Of a DNA stretch of 64,000 nucleotides, positions 24,994-40,940 are shown in pieces. The position numbers and the translations under genes were made by a program. A model generated the notes under the pieces. It ran no database searches. It saw only the letters and a program-made list of their open reading frames with translations, and was not told where the DNA came from. The stretch covers positions 154,476 to 218,475 of the forward strand of contig JBEKCB010000004.1 in NCBI GenBank assembly GCA_050015075.1, read 5' to 3'. This stretch comes from Candidatus Brocadiia bacterium (GTDB taxonomy: Bacteria > Planctomycetota > Brocadiia > CAIUPP01). How positions within the stretch are numbered: the stretch's first letter is position 1; the number at the start of each line of letters is the position of its first letter.

Positions 24994-25016
24994 ATCGGCG
25001 CCCTTCCGGTCCCCCG

Positions 25017-25922
25017 CTACGCCCGCATCTCGATCACGCGCAGCGCCGCGGGCGCCACGTCCACCTCCACCGGCGTCCAGCCTGCCGCGTCGCCGTCCAC
25101 CTGCACCGGCAGCGGCTGCTGCGACGTGATGCGCAGCCGCACCGCCGTCCCGTGGTGGACATCGTTTCGCCGCAGGTGCCGCCGCCGCGCCGCGGCCTGG
25201 AGATACAGCAGCAGGTTCCGCAGGCCCGGCCGCTCGAACACCACCCAGTTCAGCCGGCCGTCGTCGTCGCGCGCCTCCGGCGCCAGCGGGAGCCCGAGCG
25301 CGTATCGCGGCAGGTTGAAAACGAACGCGTGCGTCCCCGCGACGCGCACGCCGTCCGCTTCGAGTTCCAGGCGCCCGTACGAATATCCCGCAATCGCTTC
25401 GAGGATCCGGCCGACGTAGCTCCAATACGTGACGCGCTTGAGCTTGCGGCCGTGCGCGCGCCAGAGCGCCAGCCGGCGGATGACCTCCGCATCGAAGCCG
25501 ACGCCGATCATGGAGCTGAAGCGCCGGCCGTTCGCGTGGCCCAGGTCCACAGAGCGCACGCGCCCCTGCGCGATCGCGCTGACGAGGCGCTCCTCGTCGG
25601 ACGAAAAGCCGAACGCCTGGGCAAAGACATTTTCCGTGCCGAGCGGCAGGACGGCTATCGGCACGCGAGGACGTTCATTGATGAGGTCGGCGACCGTGCC
25701 GTCGCCGCCGGCTGCGACGACGCAGTTCCAATTCGCGGCATGGTTCGGGTCGGCCAGTTCAGCGGTGCGCTCGCTGCGGTGCCAGAGTTCCTTCGGCTCG
25801 AAACCCGCGCGGCCGAGCGCCTCCGCCAGTGCGGCGACGCGCCGCCGGTTCGCCAGGGAGCCGCTGTAGGGATTTGCCACGATCAGAACGCCGCGCGCGT
25901 CGCCGGTGTCATTGCCCGCCAT
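25017..25922 (-). CDS. Diacylglycerol/lipid kinase family protein
   Basis: ANPYSG, GGDGTV, LPLGTEN, GVGFDA, QVDGD. Confidence 0.9.
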   Translation of the reverse strand: MAGNDTGDARGVLIVANPYSGSLANRRRVAALAEALGRAGFEPKELWHRSERTAELADPNHAANWNCVVAAGGDGTVADLINERPRVPIAVLPLGTENVFAQAFGFSSDEERLVSAIAQGRVRSVDLGHANGRRFSSMIGVGFDAEVIRRLALWRAHGRKLKRVTYWSYVGRILEAIAGYSYGRLELEADGVRVAGTHAFVFNLPRYALGLPLAPEARDDDGRLNWVVFERPGLRNLLLYLQAAARRRHLRRNDVHHGTAVRLRITSQQPLPVQVDGDAAGWTPVEVDVAPAALRVIEMRA

Positions 25923-26041
25923 CGCTTAACCCGACCACACATGACGGGCGAGTGACGAGTTCCACGCTCGGGACTCGCCACTCGCCGTTGCTCGGTGTCC
26001 TTGTGTCTTCTATGCCGGAAATCCAAGCTGATCCGGGAATC

Positions 26042-26809
26042 CTAACGCGTTCCCCTTCCCAGCCCTTGCTTGGTCAGCCAGGCGCAGCTCTCTCGAGCCG
26101 CCGTCACCATGTCCGTCGCGCAGCTATCCAGCTCCACCACCAGCCATTGGAGCACCTTCGGATCGGCGGCGCGGACGCAGCCGGCCACGTCCATCTTGCC
26201 CGCGCCCACCGCCGTGTGCGGCTGATCTTTGACCAGCGGCCCGTCCTTGATGTGGAGCAGCGGCATGCGGCTGCGATACTTCTTGATGACCTCCGGCACT
26301 TTCACCGCGCCGAAATTCGCCGCCCAGTAGGTGTCCAACTCGCCGAAAATATCCGGCGCCTGCTCCATCAGCAGGTCGTACTTGTACCGGCCGCCCTCGA
26401 CGTCGAATTCCCACCAGTGGTTATGATAGCCGAACCGCAGCCCGTGCGGTTTCAGCAGCTCGGCGGCCTTCTGAAGCTCCGCCGCCACGGTCTTCACGCC
26501 GTCCGGCCCCTTGAACTTGTCCGGCCCCCGGTTGGTGATGATCATTTTGTAGCCGAGCGCGTTGGCGGTCTCCACCGTCTCCTTGAGATTCTCCGCCGTC
26601 GGCAGGCCCACGTGCGCGGAGGAGGCGACCAGCCCGAGGTCGTCGAGCATCTTGCGCACCTCGGCCGCCTTCTTGCCGTACAGCCCGGCCATCTCGACAC
26701 CGACGTAGCCGCTCGCGGCGACTTCTTTGAGCGTCTTGAGCAGGTCCTTCTCCGCCTCCTTGCGCAGCGTGTAAAGCTGAATACTGACCGGCGGCTTCTG
26801 CTTCGCCAT
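26042..26809 (-). CDS. Sugar phosphate isomerase/epimerase (TIM barrel)
   Basis: QLYTLR, GYHNHWWEF, ELDTYW, LHIKDG, VVELD; GGGAGG RBS before ATG at 26809. Confidence 0.88.
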   Translation of the reverse strand: MAKQKPPVSIQLYTLRKEAEKDLLKTLKEVAASGYVGVEMAGLYGKKAAEVRKMLDDLGLVASSAHVGLPTAENLKETVETANALGYKMIITNRGPDKFKGPDGVKTVAAELQKAAELLKPHGLRFGYHNHWWEFDVEGGRYKYDLLMEQAPDIFGELDTYWAANFGAVKVPEVIKKYRSRMPLLHIKDGPLVKDQPHTAVGAGKMDVAGCVRAADPKVLQWLVVELDSCATDMVTAARESCAWLTKQGLGRGTR

Positions 26810-26826
26810 GGCGTCCTCCCTCTGAA

Positions 26827-27216
26827 TTATGCCGGAACAGCCTTGTGAGCGTACACGATGACGCCCGTGCGGCCCTCCGAGCGAATCTTGCGGAATTCCA
26901 GGCGCACCTTCATTCCCATCTTCATGTCCTCGGGCGCGACGTCCGCCACCTGGGCGGTCAGGCGCGTCGTGTCTTCCATCTCGATCACGGCGACGACGTA
27001 AGGCACTTCCTGCGCGAAGGCGGGCGGCGCGACGCGGATCACGCTGTACGTCAGCACCTTGCCCGACTGCGCCATCGGCTTCATCTCGAACTCGCGCCCG
27101 CGGCAGCCGTCGCAGACCTGGCGCGGCGGAAAGTGCATCTTCCCGCACCCCTTGCACCGGGCGACTTCGTTCAAAAGGCGCTGCCGCCGTTCGCGCCAGA
27201 CGCGGACTGTGCTCAT
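26827..27216 (-). CDS. DUF35 Zn-ribbon/OB-fold protein (thiolase-HMG-CoA synthase scaffold)
   Basis: CKGCG..FPPR.VCDGC, GKVLTYSVI, PYVVAVIE, GMKVRLEFRK. Confidence 0.9.
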   Translation of the reverse strand: MSTVRVWRERRQRLLNEVARCKGCGKMHFPPRQVCDGCRGREFEMKPMAQSGKVLTYSVIRVAPPAFAQEVPYVVAVIEMEDTTRLTAQVADVAPEDMKMGMKVRLEFRKIRSEGRTGVIVYAHKAVPA

Positions 27217-27217
27217 T

Positions 27218-28375
27218 TCAGATCAGCTCCAATACGTGCACCACCGAACTTCCGCCGCTGCCGCCCATGTTCTGGGTCAGGCCGATCCGCGCGTTGCGGA
27301 CCTGGCGCTCGCCGGCCTCGCCGCGCAGTTGCGTCACCACCTCGTTGATCTGCGCAACGCCGGTGGCGCCGACCGGATGGCCCTTCGACTTCAGGCCGCC
27401 GCTCGTGTTGACCGGCGATCGGCCGTCGCGCGCGGTCAGTCCGCTGCGCGCCGCGTCGCCGCCCTGCCCGCGCGGCACGAATCCCAGTTCCTCGATCGCG
27501 CACACCTCGGCGATCGTGAAGCAGTCGTGCACCTCCGCCAGGTGGATATCCGCGGGCTTGCGCTTCGCCATCTTGAGCGCGATCTGCCCGGACCGCTCGA
27601 CCGCCGGCAACCTCGTCAGGTCGGCGCGGCGATAGAGCGCCAGGCTGTCGGTCGCGTGGCCGACCCCGGCGATCCGCACCGGCGCCTTCTTCGCCATCTT
27701 TTTCGCCAGTTCGAGCGGACACAGGATCGCCGCCGCCGCGCCGTCGGTCACGGGCGAGCAATCGAGAATGTGCAGCGGGTCGGCGACCATCATCGAATCG
27801 AGCACGTCCTCCACGGTGATCCGGTTCCGGAACTGCGCCAGCGGGTTGAGCGCCCCGTTCGCGTGGTTCTTCACTGCGATCGCGGCGAGTTGCTCGCTGG
27901 TGGTGCCGTATCGCTCCATGTGCGCGCGCGCGATCATGGCGTAGAGCCCGGGGAACGTCACGCCGTGGAACGCCTCGTAGTCCTGGTCGGCGGCCGTCGC
28001 GAGCGCGGCCGTGCAAACGTCGCCGGCCACGTCGGTCATCTTCTCGACGCCCATCGCCAGCACGACGTCGCTCAGGCCGCTGGCGACCTCGATGAAGGCC
28101 GACCGCACCGCCAGTCCGCCCGAGGCGCAGGCCGATTCCACGCGCGTCGCCGGGATCGGCCCCAGGCCCAGGAAGTCCGAGGCCAGGCTCGCCAGGTGCT
28201 CTTGCTCGGCGAACAGGCCGCTCGACATGCAGCCGACGTACATCGAGTCCACGTGGTCCACGCCCGCGTCGGCGATCGCCTTGAGCCCCGCCTCGACCAT
28301 CAGATCGCGCAGCGATTTTTCCCAAAGCTCGCCGAACCGCGTCATCCCGATCCCGATAATCGCAACGTCCCGCAT
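27218..28375 (-). CDS. Acetyl-CoA acetyltransferase, archaeal (SCP2-like) type thiolase
   Basis: [52 protein letters not shown]. Confidence 0.92.
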
Positions 28376-28412
28376 CGTCCGCCGCTCCACAATTCAATTT
28401 CGAAAACGCCGG

Positions 28413-29471
28413 TCAATCCTCTTCGCGCGCGATCTTGCTGCGGAACCGCGCGTAGCGCGTGTAATCGAGCTGCACGGTCGGCTTCGCGAGAATCTCCTCG
28501 ACGGTTGGCCCGCGGCCGCGGACCTCCGCGATCAGGCCGGTGACCGTGAAGACGAACGCGTCGCTGCCCGCGCCCGATCCGTACGAGACCATGAAGATTT
28601 TCTGCCCCGGCTTCGCTACGTCGAGCACTGCGCAGAGCCCGAGCGGCGACGCGCCGCTGTACACGTTGCCGATGCGCGGCGACAGAAGCCCCGCGCGGCA
28701 TTGCTCCTTCGAGAACCCGAGCAGTTGCCCCGCGCGGACCGGGAACTTGCCGTTCGGCTGATGGAAGATCGCGTGCGCGAAGTCGCCGACCTTCATGCCG
28801 GTCTGTTCGAGCAGCTTCCGCGCCGCCGTCATCGTGTGATGGAAATAGCCCGGCTCGCCCGTGAAGCGCCCGCCGTGCCGCGGGAACCGCTCCTCCTCGC
28901 GGCGCCAGAAGTCGGGCGTGTCCGTGGTGTAGGCGAGCGACGCGTCCATCGTCGCCACAACGCCTTCGCGCCCGAAGATGAAGGCCGCGGCGCCGGCGGC
29001 GGTGGCGAACTCGAGCGGGTCGCCCGGCGCGCCCTGAGCGGTGTCGGAGCCGATCGCCAGGGCGCACTCCACCGCGCCCGCCTCGACCAGGCGCGAGCAC
29101 AGGTACATCGCCTCGGTGCCCGCCTTGCAGGCGAACTCCAAGTCCGCGGTGTGGATCCAGCGGGTCGTCCCGATCGCCTCGGAGACGACGGTGCTGCTGG
29201 GCTTCACGGCGTACGGATGCGACTCGGAGCCGATGTAGATCGCGCCGATCTTTGCCGGATCGGTTGCTCCGCGCCGGATCGCGCGGCGCGCCGCCTCGAC
29301 CGCCAGCGTGATGCAGTCCTGGTCGCGCGCGGCGACGGACTTCTCCTCCATGCCGAGTCCCTTGCGATAGATCTCGGCCTCCCATCCCCACGCGCGCGCG
29401 ACTTCAGAGGTCTTGATGCGATAGCGCGGGATGTACGCGCCATAGCCCACGATTCCGACCGGGTCCTTCAT
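28413..29471 (-). CDS. Hydroxymethylglutaryl-CoA synthase, archaeal type
   Basis: GYGAYIPRYRI, GSESHPYAVKP, DLEFACKAGT, DTPDFWRR, FHQPNGKFP, SYGSGAGSD. Confidence 0.92.
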   Translation of the reverse strand: MKDPVGIVGYGAYIPRYRIKTSEVARAWGWEAEIYRKGLGMEEKSVAARDQDCITLAVEAARRAIRRGATDPAKIGAIYIGSESHPYAVKPSSTVVSEAIGTTRWIHTADLEFACKAGTEAMYLCSRLVEAGAVECALAIGSDTAQGAPGDPLEFATAAGAAAFIFGREGVVATMDASLAYTTDTPDFWRREEERFPRHGGRFTGEPGYFHHTMTAARKLLEQTGMKVGDFAHAIFHQPNGKFPVRAGQLLGFSKEQCRAGLLSPRIGNVYSGASPLGLCAVLDVAKPGQKIFMVSYGSGAGSDAFVFTVTGLIAEVRGRGPTVEEILAKPTVQLDYTRYARFRSKIAREED

Positions 29472-29501
29472 CCGGAATTCTCCGAACAAACAACGACCAG
29501 C

Positions 29502-29661
29502 TTGACCGCGAAAGCGCGAAAACGCGAAAACGACAACGGAATACAACTTTGAACCACAGATGAACACAGATAAGCACAGATACGAAATTCTTTATCTGTG
29601 AACATCTGAGTCCATCTGTGGTTTAAATTCTTCTTTCGCGTTTTCGCGCTTTCGCGGTCAA
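29502..29661. repeat. Nested palindromic MITE-like element, copy 1
   Basis: Outer IR TTGACCGCGAAAGCGCGAAAACGCGAAA / TTTCGCGTTTTCGCGCTTTCGCGGTCAA; inner IR AACCACAGATGAACACAGAT / ATCTG...CATCTGTGGTT. Confidence 0.88.
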
Positions 29662-29704
29662 ATAATTTGCGGTTGCCGTTTTTCGTTTCTTCACGGTTCC
29701 GCGG

Positions 29705-30565
29705 TTAACGGACCGCGGTCCCGGCCTCGCCGCCGCACAGTGCCGACTCGACCGTCCCGGCGACCAGGCCCGAAACGATCCGCGCGTCGAGGCCGCGAAT
29801 CCTCTGCGCGATCTTGTACAACCGCTCGACCTTCCCGAGCATTCCACCGGTCACGTCCGGCCGGTCCGCGCGCTGCGGGACTGCGGCGCGAAGAGCGCGG
29901 CGGATTCCCGTGATGTTCTTCCGGTCCACGCATCGCACACAGTCCGCTGCGCGCTCGTGGACGGCCGGCGGCGCTGGAGAGAGGCGGCGTGGAGCAGCAA
30001 GATACACACCTTCCACGTCGCATGCAAGTATGATCCGCTCCGGATGCAGCCGGCCGGCCAGAAAATCGAAGAGTTCCTCCGTGCTCAGAATCGTGAAACC
30101 GCGGCGCTCATCGAGCACCGCATCGCCGTGGATCAGCGGAATCTGGCCGTCTTTCAACAGCGCGCGGATGACTCGCAGGTCCCAGCGGCGCACCTTGCCG
30201 TCGCGCGCGATCAGCTCCGCGCTGGGGCTGACGAGGGCCGGACGCAGCCCGCCGCGCGCCAGGGCGTCGAGCACGCGCGCATTCATCTCCAGCACGCCGC
30301 GCCGCGTCTCCGCGAACCCGCGCCATCCGCCGCCGCCGGCCAGCCCTTCGCGCGTATGGTGCCGCTTCGCCGGGAAATGCGCGAACCCGCCGCCGCCGTG
30401 CGCCAGCAGAAGCCGCATCTGAGGACGCCGCTCCAGCGCGCGCCCGATTTCGCCCGCCAACCGCTCGACCGCCGCCCGCCGGAACGCCCGCCGCCGCCGC
30501 TTGTCGCCCAGCAGCGATCCGCCGAGCTTCAGGAAGACAAGCGAAGCCGACCCGGATTCCTTCAC
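29705..30565 (-). CDS. ipk: Isopentenyl phosphate kinase (amino acid kinase family)
   Basis: LKLGGSLLGDK, HGGGGFAHFPA, PLIHGDAV, ILSTE, DVTGGMLGK; mevalonate context. Confidence 0.85.
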   Translation of the reverse strand: MKESGSASLVFLKLGGSLLGDKRRRRAFRRAAVERLAGEIGRALERRPQMRLLLAHGGGGFAHFPAKRHHTREGLAGGGGWRGFAETRRGVLEMNARVLDALARGGLRPALVSPSAELIARDGKVRRWDLRVIRALLKDGQIPLIHGDAVLDERRGFTILSTEELFDFLAGRLHPERIILACDVEGVYLAAPRRLSPAPPAVHERAADCVRCVDRKNITGIRRALRAAVPQRADRPDVTGGMLGKVERLYKIAQRIRGLDARIVSGLVAGTVESALCGGEAGTAVR

Positions 30566-30604
30566 GAACCCGCCTCCATCACTACCGCGAAAACGACGGC
30601 ATCT

Positions 30605-30804
30605 TTAACCGCGAAAACGCGAAAGCGCGAAAAACGGAAACGTCAAATGGATTTGGAACCACAGATGGACACAGATGAATGCAGTCAAGAAATTACGTAT
30701 CTGTGTTCATCTGTGTCCATCTGTGGTTTAAATTCTTCCGTGTTTTAAATTCTTCTTTCGCGTTTTCGCGTTTTCGCGGTCAAACAATCCGTAGTTGCCG
30801 TTTT
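30605..30804. repeat. Nested palindromic MITE-like element, copy 2
   Basis: Same outer and inner IRs; its last ~105 bp are identical to copy 3. Confidence 0.88.
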
Positions 30805-30825
30805 TCGTTTCTCAGCGGTCCGCGG

Positions 30826-31800
30826 TCAAGCCAGGTGCGCGCCCGGCCCGGCGTGGTCGGTCAGGACCTCACAGCCGGTCTCGCGCGCGATCTCATCGGC
30901 GACCCGCACGGCATCCTTTTTGAGCGTGAGGACGTGGACGTTCGGGCCTGCGTCAATGGTGAAGTACGCCTCGATGCCGCGCTTTCGAAGTCCGTACACG
31001 GCGCGGATCGCCTCGAGTGTGCCGGCGGTCCAATAGATCAGCGGCGGCGTCGAGGTCAGCATCACCGCGTGCATCGAAAGCGCATCCTCCTCGGCGGCTT
31101 CGCCCAGGAGCGCCAGGTCGCGGCGCAGGATGCCCTGTCGCACGCGGCCGGCGCGATCGGGAATCGCCGCCAGGCGACCCGTGAACGCCTCGCTCGTGTG
31201 GGCGATCCGGTGCCCTTCCGCGGAAGAGACCGTCTTCTCCTCGCGCGAGACCAGCGCGATGAGGTCGCACAGTTCCGGCCAGTGCGTTTCCGGCGCGATG
31301 GGCTCGGCGAAGGATTCTTCGTGAGTCGTCCCCGGATGCAGTTCCACGAATCCGCCCGGCACCGAGCGCGCGGCCGATCCGGAGCCGAGCCGCGCGATCC
31401 GCGAAAGCTCCGCCGCATCCGCCCGGATGCCGTACGCCGCCGAGGCCGCCACGGCCAGCGCGGCGAACCCGGAGGCGGATGAGGCGATCCCGCAGCCGGT
31501 CGGAAAACTGTTCTGCGAGGTGACCCGCGCGCTCTCTTTCCGGCCGGCGATCCGCCGGACGCGGTCCAGGAACAGGCCGATCCGGCGCGCGGATTTTTCG
31601 CCCGGCGGCGCGCCATCGAGCCGGATCTCATCGCGCGAAGCGCTCTCGTCCAGGAGCGCGACCATCGTCGTCGTGACGCACGCGGAAAGCGTCATCGAGA
31701 TGCTCGGGTTCAGCGGCAGGTTGTCCGCGCCGGGCCGGTTTCCCCAGTACTTGATGAACGCGATGTTGGCGCCGGCCAGCGCGGTGACGTTCGAAGCCAA
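30826..31800 (-). CDS. mvaD: (Di)phosphomevalonate decarboxylase, probably mevalonate-5-phosphate specific
   Basis: NIAFIKYWG, SISMTL, GIASSASGFAAL, RLGSGSAARS, FTIDAGPNVH. Confidence 0.9.
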   Translation of the reverse strand: MASNVTALAGANIAFIKYWGNRPGADNLPLNPSISMTLSACVTTTMVALLDESASRDEIRLDGAPPGEKSARRIGLFLDRVRRIAGRKESARVTSQNSFPTGCGIASSASGFAALAVAASAAYGIRADAAELSRIARLGSGSAARSVPGGFVELHPGTTHEESFAEPIAPETHWPELCDLIALVSREEKTVSSAEGHRIAHTSEAFTGRLAAIPDRAGRVRQGILRRDLALLGEAAEEDALSMHAVMLTSTPPLIYWTAGTLEAIRAVYGLRKRGIEAYFTIDAGPNVHVLTLKKDAVRVADEIARETGCEVLTDHAGPGAHLA

Positions 31801-31859
31801 GATTCACTCCGGAAAACGAGGAAGCATGAATGATTAACGGCGAAGCACTTCTTCATTCA

Positions 31860-32819
31860 TCATTCAAACTTCGGACTATCCCCGAGGCTGGTGGTGATGG
31901 TGCTTTCGGCGCCGGCGAGCCGCAGCTCGGCGGCGATGCGTTCCTCGCCGGCCTCGTCATCCACCAGCGCGATCATCGCGCCGCCCCGGCCCGCGCCGGA
32001 GAGCTTCGCCCCGAGCGCGCCTTTCCGCAACGCGACTTCGACGAGCCGGTCCAGCTCCGGGCTGGAGACGCCGACGTGCCGCAGGATGCTGTGCGAGTGC
32101 GTCATGCAGACGCCGAGTTCGGCGGCCGACCCGCTGCGGATCACCTCGCGCGCGACGCTGGCCATCGAGCCGAGTTCCCAGAAATACGAATCGTACCGCG
32201 CCCGGTCCTTGTCGCGCGCCGCGCTCACGTCCTCGACGACCTGGAGCGTGGGCGATTCGATCCCCGTGTCGCCCACGATAAACCGGAAGCGGTTGGCGCC
32301 GACGGCGATTTCCTGCGGCGGCTTGCCGCGCACGAAATAGACCGGCTCGCCTTGCGCGACGACCGCGCAATCCACGCCGCTGGGGTTGCCGTGGAACTCG
32401 CGCTCCGCCTCGATCGCCAGCTCGCAGACCTGCTCCGTGGCGAGCTTGCGGCCGAGCGCACCGCAGACGCCGCGCACCAGGGCGACGGCGATCGCCGCCC
32501 CGCTGCCCATGCCGCGCCGCATCGGGATCGTCGAGTGCAGCCGGATGCGCATCCCCTGCTTCTGCTCGCCGAAGAGCCCTGCCACCGACTCGGCGAGCCG
32601 GTACAGCGGCGCCAGGCGCTCGGACGCCTCTTCCGCGCTGTGGACGCGCTCCTTCAACTCGTCCGAGCTCATCTCGATCCCGACGCTCGGCGTCAGTTCG
32701 ACCTCCGCGCGCGCGCGGACTCCCCGGAGCGGAATCGCGATGGCCGGATGGCCGTAGACCACCGCATGCTCGCCGATCAATAGGATTTTGCCCGGGGCTT
32801 CGCCCGACGCATTCGTCAT
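31860..32819 (-). CDS. mvk: Mevalonate kinase
   Basis: PGKILLIGEHAVVYG, PMRRGMGSGAA, HGNPSGVD, GAKLSGAGRGG. Confidence 0.92.
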   Translation of the reverse strand: MTNASGEAPGKILLIGEHAVVYGHPAIAIPLRGVRARAEVELTPSVGIEMSSDELKERVHSAEEASERLAPLYRLAESVAGLFGEQKQGMRIRLHSTIPMRRGMGSGAAIAVALVRGVCGALGRKLATEQVCELAIEAEREFHGNPSGVDCAVVAQGEPVYFVRGKPPQEIAVGANRFRFIVGDTGIESPTLQVVEDVSAARDKDRARYDSYFWELGSMASVAREVIRSGSAAELGVCMTHSHSILRHVGVSSPELDRLVEVALRKGALGAKLSGAGRGGAMIALVDDEAGEERIAAELRLAGAESTITTSLGDSPKFE

Positions 32820-32872
32820 CGAACTCTCCGTACCGCGAAGACGCGGGACCACGAAACAAAGTCAACGGCAAC

Positions 32873-33080
32873 TTGACCGCGAAAACGCGAAAGCGCGAAA
32901 ACGGCAACGGACAACGGCGTTTGAACCACAGATGTACACAGATACGCACAGATACGAATTCTTTGACTGCGTGCATCTGTGTTCATCTGTGTCCATCTGT
33001 GGTTTAAATTCTTCCGTGTTTTAAATTCTTCTTTCGCGTTTTCGCGTTTTCGCGGTCAAACAATCCGTAGTTGCCGTTTT
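32873..33080. repeat. Nested palindromic MITE-like element, copy 3
   Basis: Same outer CGCGAAA and inner CACAGAT arms; lies between the divergent mvk and serA genes. Confidence 0.88.
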
Positions 33081-33260
33081 GGTTTTTTCGCGGTCCGCGG
33101 CCCGCGATCTACTCGATTCTATATGTCCATCAAGACAATTGCAACGCATGCGGCCGGACGCTATGATAAGCGGCGTGCGGCGGTGAAATGGAGACCCGAT
33201 CGAGTCCTCGAGCGCGACCGCCGCCGCTTCGGGACCAATGCCAGATTCGGAAGCCAGCTT

Positions 33261-34838
33261 ATGCCCAGAGTCCTGGTCGCGGATTCGCTGTCGGATGTCT
33301 GCATCGCGATCCTGCGCGATGCCGGATTGGACGTGGATGTCAACACCGGCCGGAGCGAGGAGGAACTCATCCGGCTCATTTCCGCCTACGACGCGATGGT
33401 GGTCCGCAGCGCGACGAAGGTGACCGCGCGCATCCTCGAGGCGGCCGACCGCCTGAAGGTGGTGGGCCGCGCGGGCGTCGGCGTGGACAACGTGGACGTG
33501 CCGGCGGCGTCGCACAAGGGCGTGGTGGTGATGAACACGCCGCTGGGGAACATCACCAGCGCCGCGGAGCACGCCGTGGCGATGCTGCTGGCGCTGGCCC
33601 GCAATGTCGCGCCCGCGGACGCCTCGATGAAGCGCGGCGAGTGGGAGAAGAAGAAATTCACCGGCGTGGAACTCGCCGAGAAAACGCTCGGCGTGGTCGG
33701 CATGGGCAAGGTCGGCCAGATCGTCGCGCGCGCCGCGATCGGGCTGGGGATGAGCGTCTGCGCGTACGACCCGTTCCTGCCGGAGCGCCGCGCGAAGGAA
33801 CTCGGCGTCGAGCTGGTCGAACTCGACGCGCTGCTGGAGCGGTCGGACTTCGTCACGATCCACACGCCGCTGACCGACAAGACCCGCGGCCTGATCGGCG
33901 CGGCCGCGCTGGCGAAAATGAAACCCTCCAGCCGCCTGGTCAACTGCGCGCGCGGCGGGATTGTGGACGAGGCGGCGCTCGTCGAGGCGCTCAACCACGG
34001 CCGGCTGGCCGGCGCCGCGCTCGACGTGTTCGACGCGGAGCCGCTCCCGGCCGACAGCCCGCTGCGCTCGGCGCGGAACATCATCCTCACGCCGCACCTC
34101 GGCGCCAGCACCGAAGAGGCGCAGATCAAGGTCGCCGAGGCGATCGCGCGCCAGATCGGCGCGTTCTTCAAGGAAGGTAAAATCCAGCACGCGGTCAACC
34201 TCAGTGTGACGCTCACGCCGGAACTGGAGCCGTTCGCGAAGCTTTCCGAGACGCTCGGCCGGCTCCTCTCGCAGATCCTCTCCGGTCCGCCGCAGAGCCT
34301 GACCTGCTCGGCGCGCGGCCGCATCGCTCAGGGCGACACGCACGCGCTGGCGGTCTTCGCCCTGCAGGGCCTGCTCTCGCACTGGCGCGAACAGTCGGTC
34401 AACCTCGTCAACGCGCCGCTCGTCGCCGAGGAGCGCGGCATGGCGGTGACGGAGGAAAAATCGCTCGAATCGCCCGATTTCGCCAGCATGGTCCGGCTCG
34501 AGGTCAACGGTCCGCGCGCCGCGCATAGCGCCGCCGGCACGGTCTTCGAGGGGCGCGAGCCGCGGATCATCTCCATTGACGGATTCACCGTTGACCTCAA
34601 GCCCGAAGGGACCGTGCTCGTGATGTTCTACCCGGACCGGCCGGGCATGGTCGGCAAGTTCGGCACGATCCTGGGCAACGCGGGGATCAACATCGCCGGG
34701 ATGGACGTGGGCCGCCGGGAACGGCGCGGTCGCGCGTGCGTGGCGCTTTCGGTGGACGACCCGGTCCCGCGGCCTGTGCTCGAGCAGATCCGCACCTGCA
34801 CCGGCCCCGATGGCGAGGCGCACCTCGTCGAATTGTAG
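33261..34838 (+). CDS. serA: D-3-phosphoglycerate dehydrogenase (with ASB and ACT domains)
   Basis: VRSATKVT, RAGVGVDNVD, GMGKVG, NCARGG, TPHLGASTEEAQ, DRPGMVG ACT domain. Confidence 0.95.
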   Translation: MPRVLVADSLSDVCIAILRDAGLDVDVNTGRSEEELIRLISAYDAMVVRSATKVTARILEAADRLKVVGRAGVGVDNVDVPAASHKGVVVMNTPLGNITSAAEHAVAMLLALARNVAPADASMKRGEWEKKKFTGVELAEKTLGVVGMGKVGQIVARAAIGLGMSVCAYDPFLPERRAKELGVELVELDALLERSDFVTIHTPLTDKTRGLIGAAALAKMKPSSRLVNCARGGIVDEAALVEALNHGRLAGAALDVFDAEPLPADSPLRSARNIILTPHLGASTEEAQIKVAEAIARQIGAFFKEGKIQHAVNLSVTLTPELEPFAKLSETLGRLLSQILSGPPQSLTCSARGRIAQGDTHALAVFALQGLLSHWREQSVNLVNAPLVAEERGMAVTEEKSLESPDFASMVRLEVNGPRAAHSAAGTVFEGREPRIISIDGFTVDLKPEGTVLVMFYPDRPGMVGKFGTILGNAGINIAGMDVGRRERRGRACVALSVDDPVPRPVLEQIRTCTGPDGEAHLVEL

Positions 34839-34865
34839 ATTGTTCATTCTTTCTGCAATTGTGAG

Positions 34866-34893
34866 TTGACGGAAGCGCCGGCTTCTGTATAAT
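34866..34893 (+). promoter_or_regulatory. Putative sigma70 promoter of the two-component/hydrogenase operon
   Basis: TTGACG-16 bp-TATAAT. Confidence 0.55.
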
Positions 34894-34945
34894 CGCTTGC
34901 GTGCGGCGTCGGCGGCCGCTCAGGACACGAAGGGAGGAGTCGCGA

Positions 34946-35380
34946 ATGGCCCAGGAAAAGACGATCCTCATCGTGGATGATGACCCGGACATCGTGGAGT
35001 CCACGCGCGTGGTGCTGGAGTCGGCGGGTTACCGAGTGATGAGCGCGTCGAACGGCACCGAGGCGACCGCCCGCATCGAGCGGGAGATCCCGGACCTGAT
35101 CCTGCTCGACATCATGATGGCCGAACCGACCGAGGGCTTCCACCTCGGCTACAAGCTCCGCGAGGACCCCGTCTACGCTCACATCCCGATCATCATCGTC
35201 AGCGGCATCAGCGAGAAGACCGGCTTCGACTTCTCGAAAGAGAAGGAAACCGATTATATCAAGGCGGACGAGTTCCTGGACAAGCCGGTCAGCCCGCAGA
35301 CGCTCCTGAGCAAGGTCGCCACCCTCCTGGAGCGGAAGCCGCGCCGCGCCGCGTCCGACGGGCAAGCCCGCGCGAAATGA
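34946..35380 (+). CDS. Single-domain response regulator
   Basis: ILIVDDD, LILLDIMM, IIIVSG, LDKP; GGGAGGAG RBS. Confidence 0.92.
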   Translation: MAQEKTILIVDDDPDIVESTRVVLESAGYRVMSASNGTEATARIEREIPDLILLDIMMAEPTEGFHLGYKLREDPVYAHIPIIIVSGISEKTGFDFSKEKETDYIKADEFLDKPVSPQTLLSKVATLLERKPRRAASDGQARAK

Positions 35381-35389
35381 GGCCGCCCC

Positions 35390-36748
35390 GTGCCGGCGCA
35401 GCGAATGGCGGAGACGGCGTTGCTGGCGCGATGCCACTGGCTGCTGAAAGCCCGGTGGGTGTTTGTGGCGGCGCTCGCCGGAGCGCTGGCGTTGAGCGAC
35501 GGCGGGCTGAACTGGCAACGGCACACGGCGCCGCTGTGGGCCGTCGCGGCGTTCATCGCGCTCTACAACGCGGGGTTCACGGCGGTCGAGCGACGGCCGA
35601 AGTTCTGCGTCATCGGCGAAAGGCGAGGCGTCGGAGAGCGCATCGCGGCCTTCGTCTTCGTTCAGATGGCGCTCGACGCGATAGCGCTGACGGTGCTGCT
35701 GGGCTATTCGGGCGGCATCGGGAACCCGATTGCGTTCTTTTACATTTTTCACGTCGCGCTCGCCGGCATCCTGTTGAGCCGGCGGTTGTGCTACGCGCTG
35801 GCGTCGCTGGCGACCGCGCTGGTCGTGGCAGTCGCAATCGCGCCGCTGAATTACGGCTTCCTGAGCGGCGTCATCCAGGATGCCGGAGTGCGCCGGCCGG
35901 AGTGGCCGTTCGTGGTCGCGTACCTTGCGGCGTTCGCCTGCACGATGTACGTGACCGCCTACGTGACCACGTCGGTCGCGGCGGATCTGCGGAAGCGCGA
36001 GTTGGAGCTGGTGAGCACCGCCGAGGCGCTCCGCCAGACCAGCCAGAAACTGGCGGAGCTGGAGGAACGCAAGTCGCTGTTCATGATGACGGCGGCGCAT
36101 CAACTCAAGAGTCCGCTGGCCGCCGTCGTGAGCCTCTTGCAGGCCGCCGGGACCGCGGGCGTTTCGCCGGAGAAGGAAAAGGAGATGATCGCGCGCGCCG
36201 TGGAGCGCGCGAACGGAGCCGTGCGGCAGGTACAGGAATTGCTGGACCTCGCCCGGCTGCGCTCGCTGGACCCGGAGCGCCAGGCGCGGAAGGTGCTGGA
36301 TTTCCGCGAAGTGCTCGACGGTGTGCGCGCGACGATTGCCGCCCAGGCGGAAGGGAAGCAGGTGAAGATCGAGTTCCAGGCCCCCGACCGCGCCGCGTGG
36401 GTCGAAGGGAACCGCGATGACCTGTTCGTCGCGGTGCTGAACCTGGTGGAGAACGGCGTGAAGTATACCGAAAGCGGCGGAACGGTCAAGGCCGCGTTGA
36501 GCCCCGCGGACGGCGGATGGCAACTGGTCGTCTCCGACACCGGCATCGGCATCCCGCAGGCGGCGCTGCCGAACCTGTTCAAGGAGTTCTTCCGCGCCGG
36601 CAACGCGATCCGGCGGAAGATCGAAGGGACCGGACTGGGCCTTTCCATCGTCGAGCAGATCGTCCGAATGCACGGCGGCCGCATCCGGGCGGAGTCGGAA
36701 GAGAACAAAGGATCCACTTTCACCGTTTGGCTGCCGCGCGCGCCGTGA
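35390..36748 (+). CDS. Membrane sensor histidine kinase
   Basis: Several TM helices; AHQLKSPL, NLVENGVKY, DTGIGI, GTGLGL. Confidence 0.93.
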   Translation: MPAQRMAETALLARCHWLLKARWVFVAALAGALALSDGGLNWQRHTAPLWAVAAFIALYNAGFTAVERRPKFCVIGERRGVGERIAAFVFVQMALDAIALTVLLGYSGGIGNPIAFFYIFHVALAGILLSRRLCYALASLATALVVAVAIAPLNYGFLSGVIQDAGVRRPEWPFVVAYLAAFACTMYVTAYVTTSVAADLRKRELELVSTAEALRQTSQKLAELEERKSLFMMTAAHQLKSPLAAVVSLLQAAGTAGVSPEKEKEMIARAVERANGAVRQVQELLDLARLRSLDPERQARKVLDFREVLDGVRATIAAQAEGKQVKIEFQAPDRAAWVEGNRDDLFVAVLNLVENGVKYTESGGTVKAALSPADGGWQLVVSDTGIGIPQAALPNLFKEFFRAGNAIRRKIEGTGLGLSIVEQIVRMHGGRIRAESEENKGSTFTVWLPRAP

Positions 36749-36771
36749 ACCGCGGCAAAAAGAAAACTGAG

Positions 36772-36960
36772 GACCGCGAAAACGCGAAAACGCAAAAAAA
36801 CGCTAACGTTAAAACGAGTTTGGAACCACAGATGGACACAGATGAACACAGATGCACGCAGTTAAAAAATTCGTATCTGTGTTCATCTGTGTCCATCTGT
36901 GGTTTAGATTCTTCCGTGGTTTAGATTTTTCTTTTTTCGCGTTTTCGCGCTTTCGCGGTC
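36772..36960. repeat. Nested palindromic MITE-like element, copy 4
   Basis: Same architecture; between the kinase and hydrogenase genes. Confidence 0.85.
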
Positions 36961-36996
36961 AGACGGACTTTCCGTTGGGTTGGAAGGAGATAAGCG

Positions 36997-38022
36997 ATGC
37001 AGGAAAAGGTCGTCCAGAAAGAGGCGATGCCCGGCTTCCTCCAGCGATTGATCGGCACGGCCAAAACGGTCGCGCCGGTCCGGCAGCCGTCGGGCCACTA
37101 TCTCTTGAAGCCGGTCGCCCGCGCGGACGAAGTGGCGCTCGATTTTCCCTTCCTCTACTACTCGGCCAAGGAATATTTCCTGCCGCCCGGCGAACCGGTG
37201 CTGCAGTTCGGCCGCCGCGAGGGAAAGGCGGTCGTCACGCCGGAGACCGACACCGAGGAGGTCATCCTCTTCGGGCTGCATCCGTGCGACTTGAACGCGA
37301 TCTGGACCTGCGAGGCGTTCTTCAATGCGGATAACAAGGACGACAACTTCCTCGCCCGCCGCCGGCACATGACCATCGTCGGGCTGGACTGCGCCAAGCC
37401 CTGCGACGAGTATGCCTTCTGCGCCGACATGAAAACCGATGTCGCCCAGGGCGGCTACGACGTGCTCCTGACCGACATCGGCGACGCGTACTTCGCGCGA
37501 GCCGCCACGGAGCGCGGAGAGAAGCTCCTCGCCCATGCGCCCGCCGCGACCGCCAAGCATCGCGCCGCGCTGGCGGACCTGGCGAAATCCCGCCCGCAGC
37601 AGTTCCCGAAACGCATCGAGTTCGACACCGACGAACTGCCCAAACGCCTCGAAGGCAGCTACGACAGCCTCGTCTGGACCGCCGTCGCCAAGCGCTGCTA
37701 CAGTTGCGGCTCGTGCGTGCTGGTCTGCCCGACCTGCTTCTGCTTCGACCTGAAGGACCGCCTTTCGCTCAACCTGGCCGACGGGCAGCGCGAGCGCTGG
37801 TGGGACGGCTGCATGCTCAACGCCTTCGCGCAAGTCTCCGGCGGCGAGAACTTCCGGCGCGAGAAGCACGAGCGCCTGCGCCATCGGATGTTCCGCAAGG
37901 GCAAGTACATCAAGGAGCAGATCGGCCGCTTCGGCTGCGTCGGCTGCGGCCGGTGCGACCGCGCGTGCACCTCGAAAATCTCCATCGTCGCAACCTATAA
38001 TCAACTGAAAGGGGGTGCGTGA
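36997..38022 (+). CDS. Group 3b hydrogenase/sulfhydrogenase beta subunit (AsrA-like Fe-S)
   Basis: GLHPCD, CYSCGSCVLVCPTCFCF, WDGCM, CVGCGRCDRAC. Confidence 0.88.
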   Translation: MQEKVVQKEAMPGFLQRLIGTAKTVAPVRQPSGHYLLKPVARADEVALDFPFLYYSAKEYFLPPGEPVLQFGRREGKAVVTPETDTEEVILFGLHPCDLNAIWTCEAFFNADNKDDNFLARRRHMTIVGLDCAKPCDEYAFCADMKTDVAQGGYDVLLTDIGDAYFARAATERGEKLLAHAPAATAKHRAALADLAKSRPQQFPKRIEFDTDELPKRLEGSYDSLVWTAVAKRCYSCGSCVLVCPTCFCFDLKDRLSLNLADGQRERWWDGCMLNAFAQVSGGENFRREKHERLRHRMFRKGKYIKEQIGRFGCVGCGRCDRACTSKISIVATYNQLKGGA

Positions 38023-38879
38023 TGCCCGTCACGAGCCCGACCGCCGAGCCGCGCACCATCTACACCTCCGAGATCGCCGAAGTCCTGGCGACCCGGAAGC
38101 TCACCGAGAAGGAGATGCTGTTCACGGTCCGCCTGCCGAACGGGCGCGACCTGGGCCACACGCCCGGCCAGTTCGTCGAGGTCTCCGTCTTCGGCTCGGG
38201 CGAAGCGCCGATCTCCGTCACCTCGCCGCCCACGCAGAAGGGCAATTTCGAGATCTGCGTCCGGCGTGTGGGAATGGTCACCGGCGACCTGCACCGGCTC
38301 GAACCCGGTGCGACCATCGGCGTCCGCGGGCCTTACGGGCGCGGGTTCGACATCCGCGAGTTCGAGGGGAAAGACATCATTTACGTCGCCGGCGGGCTCG
38401 GGCTGGCGCCGCTGCGCTCGCTCATCAAGGCCACGCTCAGCCCCGCCCTGCGCAGCAAATTCAAGCGCATCACCATCCTCTACGGCGCCAAGAACCCGGG
38501 CGAACTGCTCTACACCGACGAACTGCGCGAGTGGCAGGAGCGCGGCGACGTGACGTGCCTCGTCACCGTGGACCGGCCCGACGAAGCCTGGCGCGGGAAC
38601 GCCGGCGTGATCACCACGCTCTTCAAGAAGCTGCCCAAAACTTCGCCGGCGAACACGATCGTGGCCATCGTCGGCCCGCCGGTGATGTACAAGTTCGTGA
38701 TCCTCGAAGTGTTCATGCTCGGCATTTCCGAGTCGCAGATCCGGCTCTCGCTCGAACGCCGCATGAAGTGCGGCGTCGGCAAGTGCGGCCACTGCCAGAT
38801 GAACGGCGTCTACGTCTGCCAGAAAGGCCCCGTCTTCAGCTATTCGGAGATCAAGGGACTGCGCGAGGCCATCCATTGA
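38019..38879 (+). CDS. Group 3b hydrogenase gamma subunit (FAD/NAD(P)-binding, 2Fe-2S)
   Basis: PGQF, GEAPIS, RGPYGRGF, GGLGLAP, ERRMKCGVGKCGHC. Confidence 0.9.
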   Translation: MMPVTSPTAEPRTIYTSEIAEVLATRKLTEKEMLFTVRLPNGRDLGHTPGQFVEVSVFGSGEAPISVTSPPTQKGNFEICVRRVGMVTGDLHRLEPGATIGVRGPYGRGFDIREFEGKDIIYVAGGLGLAPLRSLIKATLSPALRSKFKRITILYGAKNPGELLYTDELREWQERGDVTCLVTVDRPDEAWRGNAGVITTLFKKLPKTSPANTIVAIVGPPVMYKFVILEVFMLGISESQIRLSLERRMKCGVGKCGHCQMNGVYVCQKGPVFSYSEIKGLREAIH

Positions 38880-38904
38880 ACCGCCTCTTGGAGGAGAACG
38901 CACG

Positions 38905-39648
38905 ATGAAACCCAAGGTCGCTTTCTTCGATTTCACCAGTTGCGAGGGATGCCAGCTCGCCGTCCTGGAACTGGAGAACGAGCTGCTCGACCTGCTCGGC
39001 CTGGTGGAGATCGTCAATTTCCGCGAGGCGATGGACGACCGGCGCGAGGATTACGACATCGCATTCCTCGAAGGCTCCATCACGCGCCCGGCGGACCTGC
39101 CGCGCGTGCAGAAGATCCGCGACACCGCGAAGATCTGCGTCGCCATGGGCGCATGCGCCACGACCGGCGGCGTCAACGCGATCAAGAACACCGCGCCCGA
39201 CCTCGAAGAGGTCCGCCGCTACGTCTACGGCGAAAAAGCGCACTGCTTCGACACCTTCGCGACCAAGCCGATGAAGCAGGTCATCAAGGTGGACTACGAA
39301 CTCTTCGGCTGCCCGATCAACAAGTATGAGTTCGTCGAACTCGTCAAGTGTCTGCTCACCGGCCGGCCGTTCGTGAACAAGAACTACCCGCTCTGCGTCG
39401 AGTGCAAGCAGAACGGGAACATCTGCGTCTTCCACAAGAACATGGTCTGCCTCGGCCCGATCACCCGCGCCGGGTGCGATTCCATCTGCCCGAACAACGG
39501 CAACAAGTGCGAAGGCTGCCGCGGGCTGGTGGACGACCCGAACACCGACACTGCCCGCGAGGTGCTCTCCGAGCACGGCTACACGGTCGAAGACATCCTC
39601 CGCGAGTTCACGCTCTTCAATACGATTACGGAGGCGCCCAAGAAATGA
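38905..39648 (+). CDS. [NiFe]-hydrogenase small (delta) subunit
   Basis: TSCEGCQ, GACATTGG, GCPI, CVECK, CLGPITRAGC. Confidence 0.9.
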   Translation: MKPKVAFFDFTSCEGCQLAVLELENELLDLLGLVEIVNFREAMDDRREDYDIAFLEGSITRPADLPRVQKIRDTAKICVAMGACATTGGVNAIKNTAPDLEEVRRYVYGEKAHCFDTFATKPMKQVIKVDYELFGCPINKYEFVELVKCLLTGRPFVNKNYPLCVECKQNGNICVFHKNMVCLGPITRAGCDSICPNNGNKCEGCRGLVDDPNTDTAREVLSEHGYTVEDILREFTLFNTITEAPKK

Positions 39649-40940
39649 GAAACGTAGATGTCGGCGTCCACTACGTCACGCGCATCGAAGGCCACGGCAA
39701 CATCCTGCTGAACGTGCGCGACGGCCGGATCGAGAAGCTGGAGTGGGAAATCCCGGAGGCCCCGCGCTTCTTCGAGGCGATGCTCCGCGGCCGCCGCTAC
39801 GACGAGGCGGCCGACCTTTCCTGCCGCATCTGCGGCATCTGCTCCTGCGGCCATCGGCTTGCCTCGCTCCAGGGAATGGAAGCGGCGCTCGGCGTGCAGC
39901 CCTCGGAGCAGACCGTGCTCCTGCGCAAGCTGCTCCTCATGGGCGAGGAGATCTCCAGCCACGTCCTGCACGTCTGCTTCCTCGTCGTGCCGGACCTCCT
40001 CGGCGTGCCGAGCGTCATCCCGCTCGCCGCGACGCATCCGGAAGTCGTCAAGAAGGCGCTCAAGCTGAAGAACCTCGGCAACGAGATCGGCCGAGCGATC
40101 GCCGGCCGGCACATCCACGCCCTCAGCGCGGTACTCAACGGCTTCACCAAGCTCCCGACCGAGCAGGAACTGCGCGACCTCAAGGCGTACATCCAGAGCT
40201 GCTGGGCCGACCTGCTGGCCGTCGCCGAGGTCTACGCCTCGCTCGCGGGCGCCCTGCCCAAGTTCAGGCGCGAGACGGAATACCTGGCGCTCCAGAGCCA
40301 GGACGATTACGCGTTCTACAACGGCGACATCGTCTCCAGCGACGCCCCGAAGCCCACGCCCGTCGCCAAGTATCGCAGCCGCGTCAAGGAACACATCGTG
40401 GACCATTCCAGCGCGAAGCACGCGCGCTCGAACCGCGAGGCGTACATGGTCGGCGCGCTCGCGCGCTTCAACTGCAACAGCGAGCAGCTCCACGACGAGG
40501 CCAAGCAGCTCGCCCGGAAGCTCGGCCTCACCGCGCCCTGCCACAACCCGTTCATGATCACCACCGCGCAGCTCGTCGAAACGGTGCACTGCGTCAAGGA
40601 AGCGCTGATCCTCTGCGACAAGCTGCTCGAGCGCGGCCTCAAGCAGGAAGAGCGCTCCGTGCCGATCCGCGCCGGCCTCGGCGTCGGAGCCGTCGAGGTC
40701 CCGCGCGGCACGCTCTACCACGAATACGCCGTGGACTCGAAAGGCATCATCACCGACGCGAACCTCGTCATCCCGACCGGGCAGAACCACGCGAACATCG
40801 AGCAGGACATGCTCGCGTTCGTCCCGCAGATCCTCGACAAATCGAAAGAGGAAATCACGCACCTGCTTGAGATGCTCGTCCGCGCCTACGACCCGTGCGT
40901 CTCCTGTTCGACGCACCTGTTGAACGTCGAATTCGCCTGA
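39645..40940 (+). CDS. [NiFe]-hydrogenase large (alpha) subunit, group 3b-like
   Basis: TRIEGHG, L1 RICGICSCGH, EVPRG, L2 DPCVSCSTH with a short C-terminal extension; ATGA overlap with the small subunit. Confidence 0.93.
   Translation: MRNVDVGVHYVTRIEGHGNILLNVRDGRIEKLEWEIPEAPRFFEAMLRGRRYDEAADLSCRICGICSCGHRLASLQGMEAALGVQPSEQTVLLRKLLLMGEEISSHVLHVCFLVVPDLLGVPSVIPLAATHPEVVKKALKLKNLGNEIGRAIAGRHIHALSAVLNGFTKLPTEQELRDLKAYIQSCWADLLAVAEVYASLAGALPKFRRETEYLALQSQDDYAFYNGDIVSSDAPKPTPVAKYRSRVKEHIVDHSSAKHARSNREAYMVGALARFNCNSEQLHDEAKQLARKLGLTAPCHNPFMITTAQLVETVHCVKEALILCDKLLERGLKQEERSVPIRAGLGVGAVEVPRGTLYHEYAVDSKGIITDANLVIPTGQNHANIEQDMLAFVPQILDKSKEEITHLLEMLVRAYDPCVSCSTHLLNVEFA

Follow-up and report, generated by a model that had tools for sequence, protein, structure and literature searches.

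The decarboxylate-first mevalonate pathway is of a type found in haloarchaea and Chloroflexi, with Haloferax volcanii reportedly its haloarchaeal example (work said to be that of VanNice, 2014). Here, we analyze a stretch of 64,000 nucleotides ("the window"; contig JBEKCB010000004.1) from a peat-dwelling Candidatus Brocadiia bacterium of the phylum Planctomycetota, in which six genes at 26827..32819 are predicted to encode a pathway of this type. Where three papers treat its distribution (PMC6107057, 2018; PMC9254496, 2022; PMC11052028, 2024), the route through phosphomevalonate decarboxylase (PMD, also MPD) and isopentenyl phosphate kinase (IPK) is restricted, among bacteria, to Chloroflexi. 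Roseiflexus castenholzii (Dellas 2013, PMC3857490) and Anaerolinea (PDB entry 6n0x) represent it there, and they share with the window a mevalonate kinase (MVK), a decarboxylase and an IPK, without phosphomevalonate kinase (PMK). Two other described systems overlap with the locus in part. Clusters of the Candidate Phyla Radiation (CPR; Microgenomates) are described as placing an archaeal-type HMG-CoA synthase (HMGS), a thiolase and a DUF35 gene beside lower-pathway genes, as the window does (Hoshino & Gaucher 2018, PMC6107057). The archaeal trans-anhydromevalonate phosphate pathway uses MVK, AcnX, UbiD with UbiX, and IPK; a 2023 paper calls this route ‘unique to archaea’ and its dehydratase oxygen-sensitive (PMC10040528, in the statements bearing on this point).

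We conclude that the cluster very probably encodes the organism's only route to isopentenyl diphosphate (IPP), a decarboxylate-first pathway of the haloarchaeal and Chloroflexi type. The novelty lies in the host phylum, Planctomycetota, and not in the type of pathway, which is known. Our literature search found no paper describing either the MPD–IPK or the anhydromevalonate route in this phylum, and one that names Planctomycetota and mevalonate together (PMC10663253) concerns IspG only. The six genes, in the order in which they would be transcribed, are:

31860..32819, minus strand: mevalonate kinase (MVK), ATG start at 32819; TIGR00549, 235.3 bits against a cut-off of 163
30826..31800, minus strand: predicted mevalonate-5-phosphate decarboxylase (MPD/PMD) of the MDD family, TTG start; TIGR01240, 273 bits against 171
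29705..30565, minus strand: isopentenyl phosphate kinase (IPK), GTG start; NF040647, 143.2 bits against a cut-off of 120
28413..29471, minus strand: archaeal-type HMG-CoA synthase (HMGS); NF003274, 518 bits, and TIGR00748, 494 bits against 353
27218..28390, minus strand: acetoacetyl-CoA thiolase, archaeal, SCP2-thiolase-like; NF004720, 546 bits against a cut-off of 420
26827..27216, minus strand: DUF35 protein (zinc ribbon and OB fold), predicted scaffold subunit of a thiolase/HMGS complex; PF01796 and PF12172

Each of the six passes the curated cut-off of a model for its named family in NCBIfam or Pfam. An earlier note, made from the letters alone, had read the same six co-oriented genes here and no PMK among them, and the family assignments bear out both statements. 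The MVK has both GHMP domains, N- and C-terminal, and the motifs GKILLIGEHAV, GMGSGAA and PSGVD; its open reading frame (ORF) stays open upstream as far as a GTG at 32852. The likely HMGS start is the Met at 29471 (MKDPVGIV), since the mechanically called ORF, which extends to 29567, runs into a repeat element described below.

Among PDB entries, the decarboxylase matches 6n0x best (275 bits), which PMC9254496 describes as the phosphomevalonate decarboxylase of Anaerolinea thermophila with mevalonate-5-phosphate bound; the best classical diphosphomevalonate decarboxylase (DMD) is that of E. faecalis (5v2l, 215 bits). The motifs KYWGN (residue 17) and SSAEGH (residue 192) are both present, as the earlier note had it. 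In the PDB alignment, Asn21 and His197 are the residues of 6n0x (KYWGN, GSTQGH), whereas 5v2l reads KYWGK and SSRDGM. Over residues 7-321, two substitutions, N to K and H to M, are all that separates the deposited variant 6n0z from 6n0x. Alignment A1 shows no variation at the catalytic Asp283, at Arg145 or in the Ser107/108 loop. According to Table 4 of Dellas et al. (PMC3857490), DMDs of bacteria, Sulfolobales and eukaryotes conserve the lysine at position 21 (S. epidermidis numbering), and MPDs have another residue in its place; where PMC3857490 and PMC11052028 discuss markers, Lys marks DMD and His marks PMD. Like the Chloroflexi enzymes, the window decarboxylase lacks the DMD lysine and has the PMD histidine. 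At position 21 it carries Asn as in Anaerolinea; the Roseiflexus enzyme has Leu (as given in PMC3857490). The enzyme is thus predicted to be of the mevalonate-5-phosphate type, with 6n0x its closest structure, Asn in place of the DMD lysine and the PMD histidine kept. Of the two motifs that the earlier note offered as markers, the Asn stands; the His does not discriminate by itself, because Lys-bearing CPR enzymes encoded beside two GHMP kinases carry it as well.

How well does position 21 predict the pathway? For the 80 best loci with a relative of the decarboxylase in species-representative genomes, we recorded the residue aligned to position 21 and the neighboring genes. All 18 loci that include an IPK have Asn (nine) or Ala (nine) at this position, and all six with two adjacent GHMP-kinase-like genes have Lys or Arg and no IPK. 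A whole-genome IPK search covered 50 of the 80 loci, namely all 18 with Lys or Arg and 32 of the 62 others; an IPK was found in 29 of the 32 genomes with other residues (one split, below cut-off) versus 2 of the 18 Lys/Arg genomes. Across these 50 genomes, the residue follows the presence or absence of IPK. As the genomes surveyed are interrelated, these counts are descriptive and do not amount to a statistical test.

Seven of the eight PDB matches of the IPK are IPKs or the IPK-like kinase 3lkk, led by 3ll9 at 125 bits, and the weakest is the fosfomycin kinase FomA. The histidine of its HGGGGFAH motif aligns with that of the ‘fgh’ motif in solved IPKs, used as an IPK signature by Dellas et al. 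(in the part of PMC3857490 on this motif), and DVTGG is present. The protein therefore matches IPK rather than uridylate or acetylglutamate kinases, in agreement with the initial identification.

The upper part of the pathway is archaeal in type. The best PDB match of each of the three proteins is a chain of 6esq: chain I for HMGS (417 bits), chain A for the thiolase (377 bits) and chain E for DUF35 (97.8 bits over residues 3-128). We take 6esq and 6et9 to be the Methanothermococcus thiolase/HMGS/DUF35 complex, reportedly the work of Voegeli, 2018. The next-best matches belong to PhlA/PhlB and benzoylsuccinyl-CoA thiolase systems, at roughly half the score of the 6esq chains. The DLEFACKAG motif attributed earlier to the HMGS lies at residue 142 of the long ORF, and DUF35 has both zinc-ribbon CxxC pairs (residues 21-24 and 35-38). 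The gene order HMGS-thiolase-DUF35 and the subunit families are those of the archaeal complex, whose genes the earlier note had recognized here. By likeness to 6esq, the three proteins probably assemble as one complex. The difference from the archaeal case is that the host is bacterial.

The remaining steps were sought in the rest of the genome (4.64 Mb in 66 contigs, 93.56% complete). A class II HMG-CoA reductase (HMGR; TIGR00532, 458 bits versus 260) is encoded on contig C15, adjoined by a type 2 isopentenyl-diphosphate isomerase (IDI-2; TIGR02151, 345 bits versus 281), so that the reductase and isomerase noted as lying outside the window sit side by side elsewhere. A search for the GHMP N-terminal domain recovered ten genes: MVK, the decarboxylase, galactokinase GalK, homoserine kinase ThrB and six sugar-kinase-like genes, with neither PMK nor IspE among these ten. 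Dxr, IspG and IspH, likewise part of the methylerythritol phosphate (MEP) pathway, had no match in the genome (controls matched in nine bacteria), and neither did type 1 isomerase or AcnX (PF04412; archaeal controls matched). No alternative route to IPP was thus found by the MEP, PMK and AcnX searches. The genome fits neither the classical mevalonate pathway (no PMK found, Asn in place of Lys) nor the MEP pathway (Dxr, IspE, IspG and IspH without match). Together with HMGR and IDI-2, the mevalonate genes make up a complete set from acetyl-CoA to IPP and dimethylallyl diphosphate (DMAPP) through isopentenyl phosphate. The earlier note had listed the genes for HMGR, PMK, isomerase, the MEP enzymes and geranylgeranylglyceryl phosphate synthase (GGGPS) as worth a genome-wide search, and only HMGR and IDI-2 turned up. 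Archaeal ether lipids were considered as a separate matter and dropped, as GGGPS (PF01884) had no match in the genome.

Read from gene content, marker residues, the absence of rival genes and phylogenetic patterns, the pathway would run as follows. Thiolase, HMGS and DUF35, acting as one complex, would turn three acetyl-CoA into HMG-CoA, which the class II reductase encoded elsewhere would convert to mevalonate. MVK would then form mevalonate-5-phosphate, and the MDD-family enzyme would phosphorylate and decarboxylate this compound directly to isopentenyl phosphate. IPK would convert isopentenyl phosphate to IPP, and IDI-2 would convert IPP to DMAPP. The earlier proposal that IPP is made via mevalonate-5-phosphate and isopentenyl phosphate is supported by the marker residues and by the lack of PMK and MEP genes.

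So, could the decarboxylase still be working in a classical pathway? In that case it would use mevalonate-5-diphosphate supplied by a PMK that is unrecognized or unassembled, and IPK would only salvage isopentenyl phosphate. Several observations weigh on this side and against the route proposed above. The DMD model TIGR01240 passes, whereas the NCBIfam PMD model NF040704 reaches 185 bits against a cut-off of 475, so automatic annotation names the enzyme diphosphomevalonate decarboxylase. The genome is incomplete at 93.56%, and a PMK on the missing DNA of a 66-contig assembly is conceivable; animal-type PMK (PF04275) had no match in the genome, in a search whose positive control matched nowhere either. 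The residue rule has exceptions, with no IPK in three non-Lys genomes (L025, L063, L084) and an IPK in two Lys/Arg genomes (L059, L089). However, the lysine expected to bind the beta-phosphate is replaced by Asn, none of the ten GHMP genes is a PMK, the PMK model TIGR01220 has no match in four other genomes of the order (its control matched below cut-off only), and in three genera IPK lies within the operon next to the decarboxylase. We regard a classical pathway as very improbable.

A subtler alternative, improbable as well, is that the decarboxylase is an intermediate form that accepts both the mono- and the diphosphate and is not a dedicated MPD. A Chloroflexota DMD is described as having additional PMD activity, and enzymes without the Lys but with the His as possibly dual (both in the portion of PMC11052028 on specificity); mutagenesis is stated to be able to switch PMD to DMD specificity (PMC9254496), and the PDB variant 6n0z differs from 6n0x at just the two marker residues. 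Even so, without PMK no diphosphate would be made, and flux would still pass through mevalonate-5-phosphate and IPK. We give scarcely any credence to a third possibility, that the cluster serves a specialized product or a degradation (PhlABC-like acyl condensation or HMG-CoA catabolism) and not general isoprenoid supply. In the structure matches, homologs of PhlA and PhlB come second for HMGS (205 bits) and DUF35 (50 bits), and the NCBIfam title of the matching reductase model contains the word ‘degradative’. The 6esq chains, however, have about double the score of the Phl proteins, and MVK, decarboxylase and IPK have no part in such processes. The cell, whose genome showed no MEP genes, would need the cluster for IPP. 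The decarboxylate-first pathway thus remains by far the best account of the locus.

The earlier description of the host as a probable PVC bacterium fits: the closest named relative (locus L015) is labeled a Planctomycetota bacterium, and the window encodes a DUF1559/N-methyl protein typical of the phylum. In the decarboxylase tree, the enzyme of this relative is identical to that of a genome of the same family. Among 21 relatives, the decarboxylase occurs in all four genomes of the family and in none of the 17 others. HMGR is present in all five genomes of the order and absent from the 16 others of the class; for Dxr the opposite holds (0 of 5 and 16 of 16). IPK, too, is found in all five genomes of the order. 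As a matter of history, we infer that the mevalonate pathway replaced the MEP pathway, the route usual in bacteria, in this order. Across 301 sampled genomes of the phylum, IPK is above cut-off in 12, from six families. The six-gene order recurs in a genome of the same genus and in a second genus (L015), and in a third genus MVK-decarboxylase-IPK lie on one contig and HMGS-thiolase on another. This clustering of all pathway genes except those for HMGR and isomerase, like the planctomycete host, distinguishes the window from Chloroflexi, which do not cluster their mevalonate genes (as stated in the part of PMC6107057 on gene order). The five CPR-type loci compared differ in having two GHMP kinases and a Lys/Arg decarboxylase, and there was no IPK in the four of these genomes searched (all but L068).

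Where did the genes come from? In a tree of 87 decarboxylases built by a quick method, the family forms a clade (99). It joins, on a branch of support 91 that is not starred, a clade with support of 100 comprising another planctomycete family, one Gemmatimonadota and eight Acidobacteriota (mostly Thermoanaerobaculia), all lying within a Chloroflexota-dominated radiation. The Lys/Arg enzymes of CPR, Bacillota, Pseudomonadota and archaea are placed elsewhere, with the exception of one Arg-bearing enzyme (L061) among the Chloroflexota rows. The window adds a planctomycete order to the hosts of the route, and the trees also set Thermoanaerobaculia and one Gemmatimonadota genome in this enzyme clade; the route is therefore more widespread in bacteria than the papers cited at the outset state. 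A 30-row IPK tree built by a careful method gives a different picture: the family and its sister family form one clade (97/95), which is sister (100/97) to two other, AcnX-bearing planctomycete families, and the Acidobacteriota/Gemmatimonadota group stands apart (100/100) among Chloroflexota. Thus, the window IPK falls in a clade of planctomycete enzymes, apart from the IPK group of Chloroflexota, and, as the two placements disagree, the decarboxylase and IPK of the operon have different histories. In a 22-row HMGS tree, also made by the careful method, the window enzyme belongs to a clade made up solely of planctomycetes (99/98), together with the sister family (100/96) and two further families. 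This clade has a Chloroflexota clade as its sister (93/89) and does not fall inside the archaeal rows. The designation of the cluster as haloarchaeal in style therefore holds for the route but not for the source of the genes, whose nearest relatives in the trees are bacterial.

Nine loci of Acidobacteriota (mostly Thermoanaerobaculia) and Gemmatimonadota contain an MVK-like gene, a decarboxylase with Ala at position 21 and an IPK, with IDI-2 in seven of the nine. The trees place a second planctomycete family (L140, L141) with them. The decarboxylases and the IPKs of this combined group each form one well-supported clade, suggesting that the pair was transferred together. In one planctomycete genome (66% complete), the MDD-family gene is very divergent (end branch 2.2) and the IPK is placed with archaeal-like IPKs.

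The IPK-bearing planctomycete genomes that lack an MDD-family gene are exactly those that have AcnX (PF04412). It occurs in five of five, two of two and one of one genomes of three families and in the one genome of the sister family; no match was found in the four genomes of the window family or in two other MPD-bearing genomes tested, by a search whose controls matched only in two archaea. The sister-family genes form a single run:

Contig C119, 922-6437, one strand: MVK-UbiX-UbiD-AcnX-IPK

This run contains the exact gene set of the archaeal trans-anhydromevalonate phosphate pathway. Its MVK (TIGR00549, 243 bits) and IPK (NF040647, 160 bits) flank a UbiX flavin prenyltransferase, a UbiD-family decarboxylase and an AcnX with large and swivel domains in one ORF. 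The best PDB matches of this AcnX are chains A and B of 7cnr/7cns (281.5 and 130.5 bits), of which 7cns is a putative Thermococcus phosphomevalonate dehydratase (as named in PMC10040528); bacterial hydroxyproline dehydratases score 264 bits. In another planctomycete family, an AcnX swivel gene and the start of IPK share 4 nt. Loci L174 (7512-8715) and L176-L184 likewise come from genomes with IPK and AcnX but no MDD-family decarboxylase. Judged by these genes, the planctomycete genomes of four families with IPK and AcnX look like carriers of the archaeal trans-anhydromevalonate phosphate route in bacteria.

The sister family shares orthologous IPK and HMGS with the window family. Between MVK and IPK, the sister family has UbiX-UbiD-AcnX; the window family has one decarboxylase gene, of the MDD family, and the window genome lacks AcnX. 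This suggests that, in the window family, a single decarboxylase gene replaced the UbiX-UbiD-AcnX block in place. Since both the sister family and the two families with the next-branching IPKs have AcnX, the simplest history is that the AcnX form is older and the decarboxylase was transferred in. Aoki et al. propose the same replacement step for haloarchaea (in the relevant section of PMC9254496). On balance, we lean toward the view that the operon is a bacterial record of a haloarchaea-type displacement, in place, of the oxygen-sensitive AcnX and UbiD/UbiX by an ATP-dependent decarboxylase, which would imply that the sister family and three other families run the trans-anhydromevalonate phosphate route. 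The polarity of the swap depends on one sister genome (88% complete, 880 contigs) and on unrooted trees, the link between family and Acidobacteriota decarboxylases has 91% support in the Shimodaira-Hasegawa-like approximate likelihood-ratio test (SH-aLRT) in the quick tree only, and the placement of the sister-family MVK as nearest neighbor of the window MVK is weak (80/45), all of which tell against this scenario. Oxygen tolerance is the obvious hypothesis for why MPD took the place of the archaeal route, and it is one that we put forward on our own account. Families that differ only between MVK and IPK are a natural pair in which to ask why the ATP-costlier MPD route replaced the archaeal one. 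From the sister family also come candidate bacterial versions of the dehydratase and decarboxylase of a pathway that until now has been described in archaea alone. The decarboxylases of the MPD route are annotated throughout as ‘diphosphomevalonate decarboxylase’.

The operon is also interrupted by copies of a palindromic element:

29489..29708, no strand assigned: palindromic element copy 1, ~210 nt, between the IPK stop and the HMGS start
30592..30800, no strand assigned: copy 2, between the decarboxylase stop and the IPK start
32866..33096, no strand assigned: copy 3, 47 nt upstream of the MVK start
36760..36970, no strand assigned: copy 4, outside the operon

Each of the four folds at -104 to -109 kcal/mol; the coding-strand RNA of 29485-29712, with nested inverted repeats, folds at -109 and copy 2 at -105 kcal/mol. 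For the three operon copies, the distance to the HMGS, IPK or MVK start that follows ranges from 17 to 47 nt. Translation of the element yields spurious ‘ICVHLWFKFF’ peptides in the mechanical ORF list. Its inner-arm motif occurs 46 times in the genome with both strands counted, corresponding to ~23 elements, three of them in the operon. The same three sites are occupied in a genome of the same genus and empty in other genera (L015, L138, L139). No Rfam family was found for the element; a search of 25000-38000 returned only sub-threshold microRNA-hairpin matches to it, which we treated as chance. The genes may be co-transcribed, but with three large hairpin elements interrupting the cluster a single transcript is not assured. 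A promoter-like site lies upstream of the third element (33144-33116, minus strand). Promoter-like sites number 2 versus a shuffled expectation of 0.6, and terminator-like sites, at 7 versus 6.5, are not above expectation.

Two genes downstream of DUF35 may belong to the operon:

26042..26806, minus strand: xylose-isomerase-like TIM-barrel protein (PF01261, 55 bits), 20 nt downstream of DUF35
25017..25922, minus strand: YegS/BmrU-type lipid kinase (PF00781 and PF19279; NF009604 and TIGR00147 match below their cut-offs)

Homologs of both follow DUF35 in the same order and orientation in L015, from a different genus of the same family (TIM-barrel 318 bits, lipid kinase 239 bits), so that an eight-gene block is kept there. 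Among 171 loci compared, only L015 has these neighbors beside mevalonate genes, and a role in the pathway is thus unsupported beyond family-level synteny.

Elsewhere in the window, a plus-strand run at 36997-40937, downstream of a two-component pair, encodes a Fer4_22 iron-sulfur protein, an FAD/NAD-binding oxidoreductase with a DHODB-type Fe-S domain and a NiFe-hydrogenase large-subunit-like protein. DNA near-identical to 26827-32900 occurs in sequencing runs labeled peat metagenome, with 12 rows containing at least half of the sampled words and three of these 12 flagged as possible sources.

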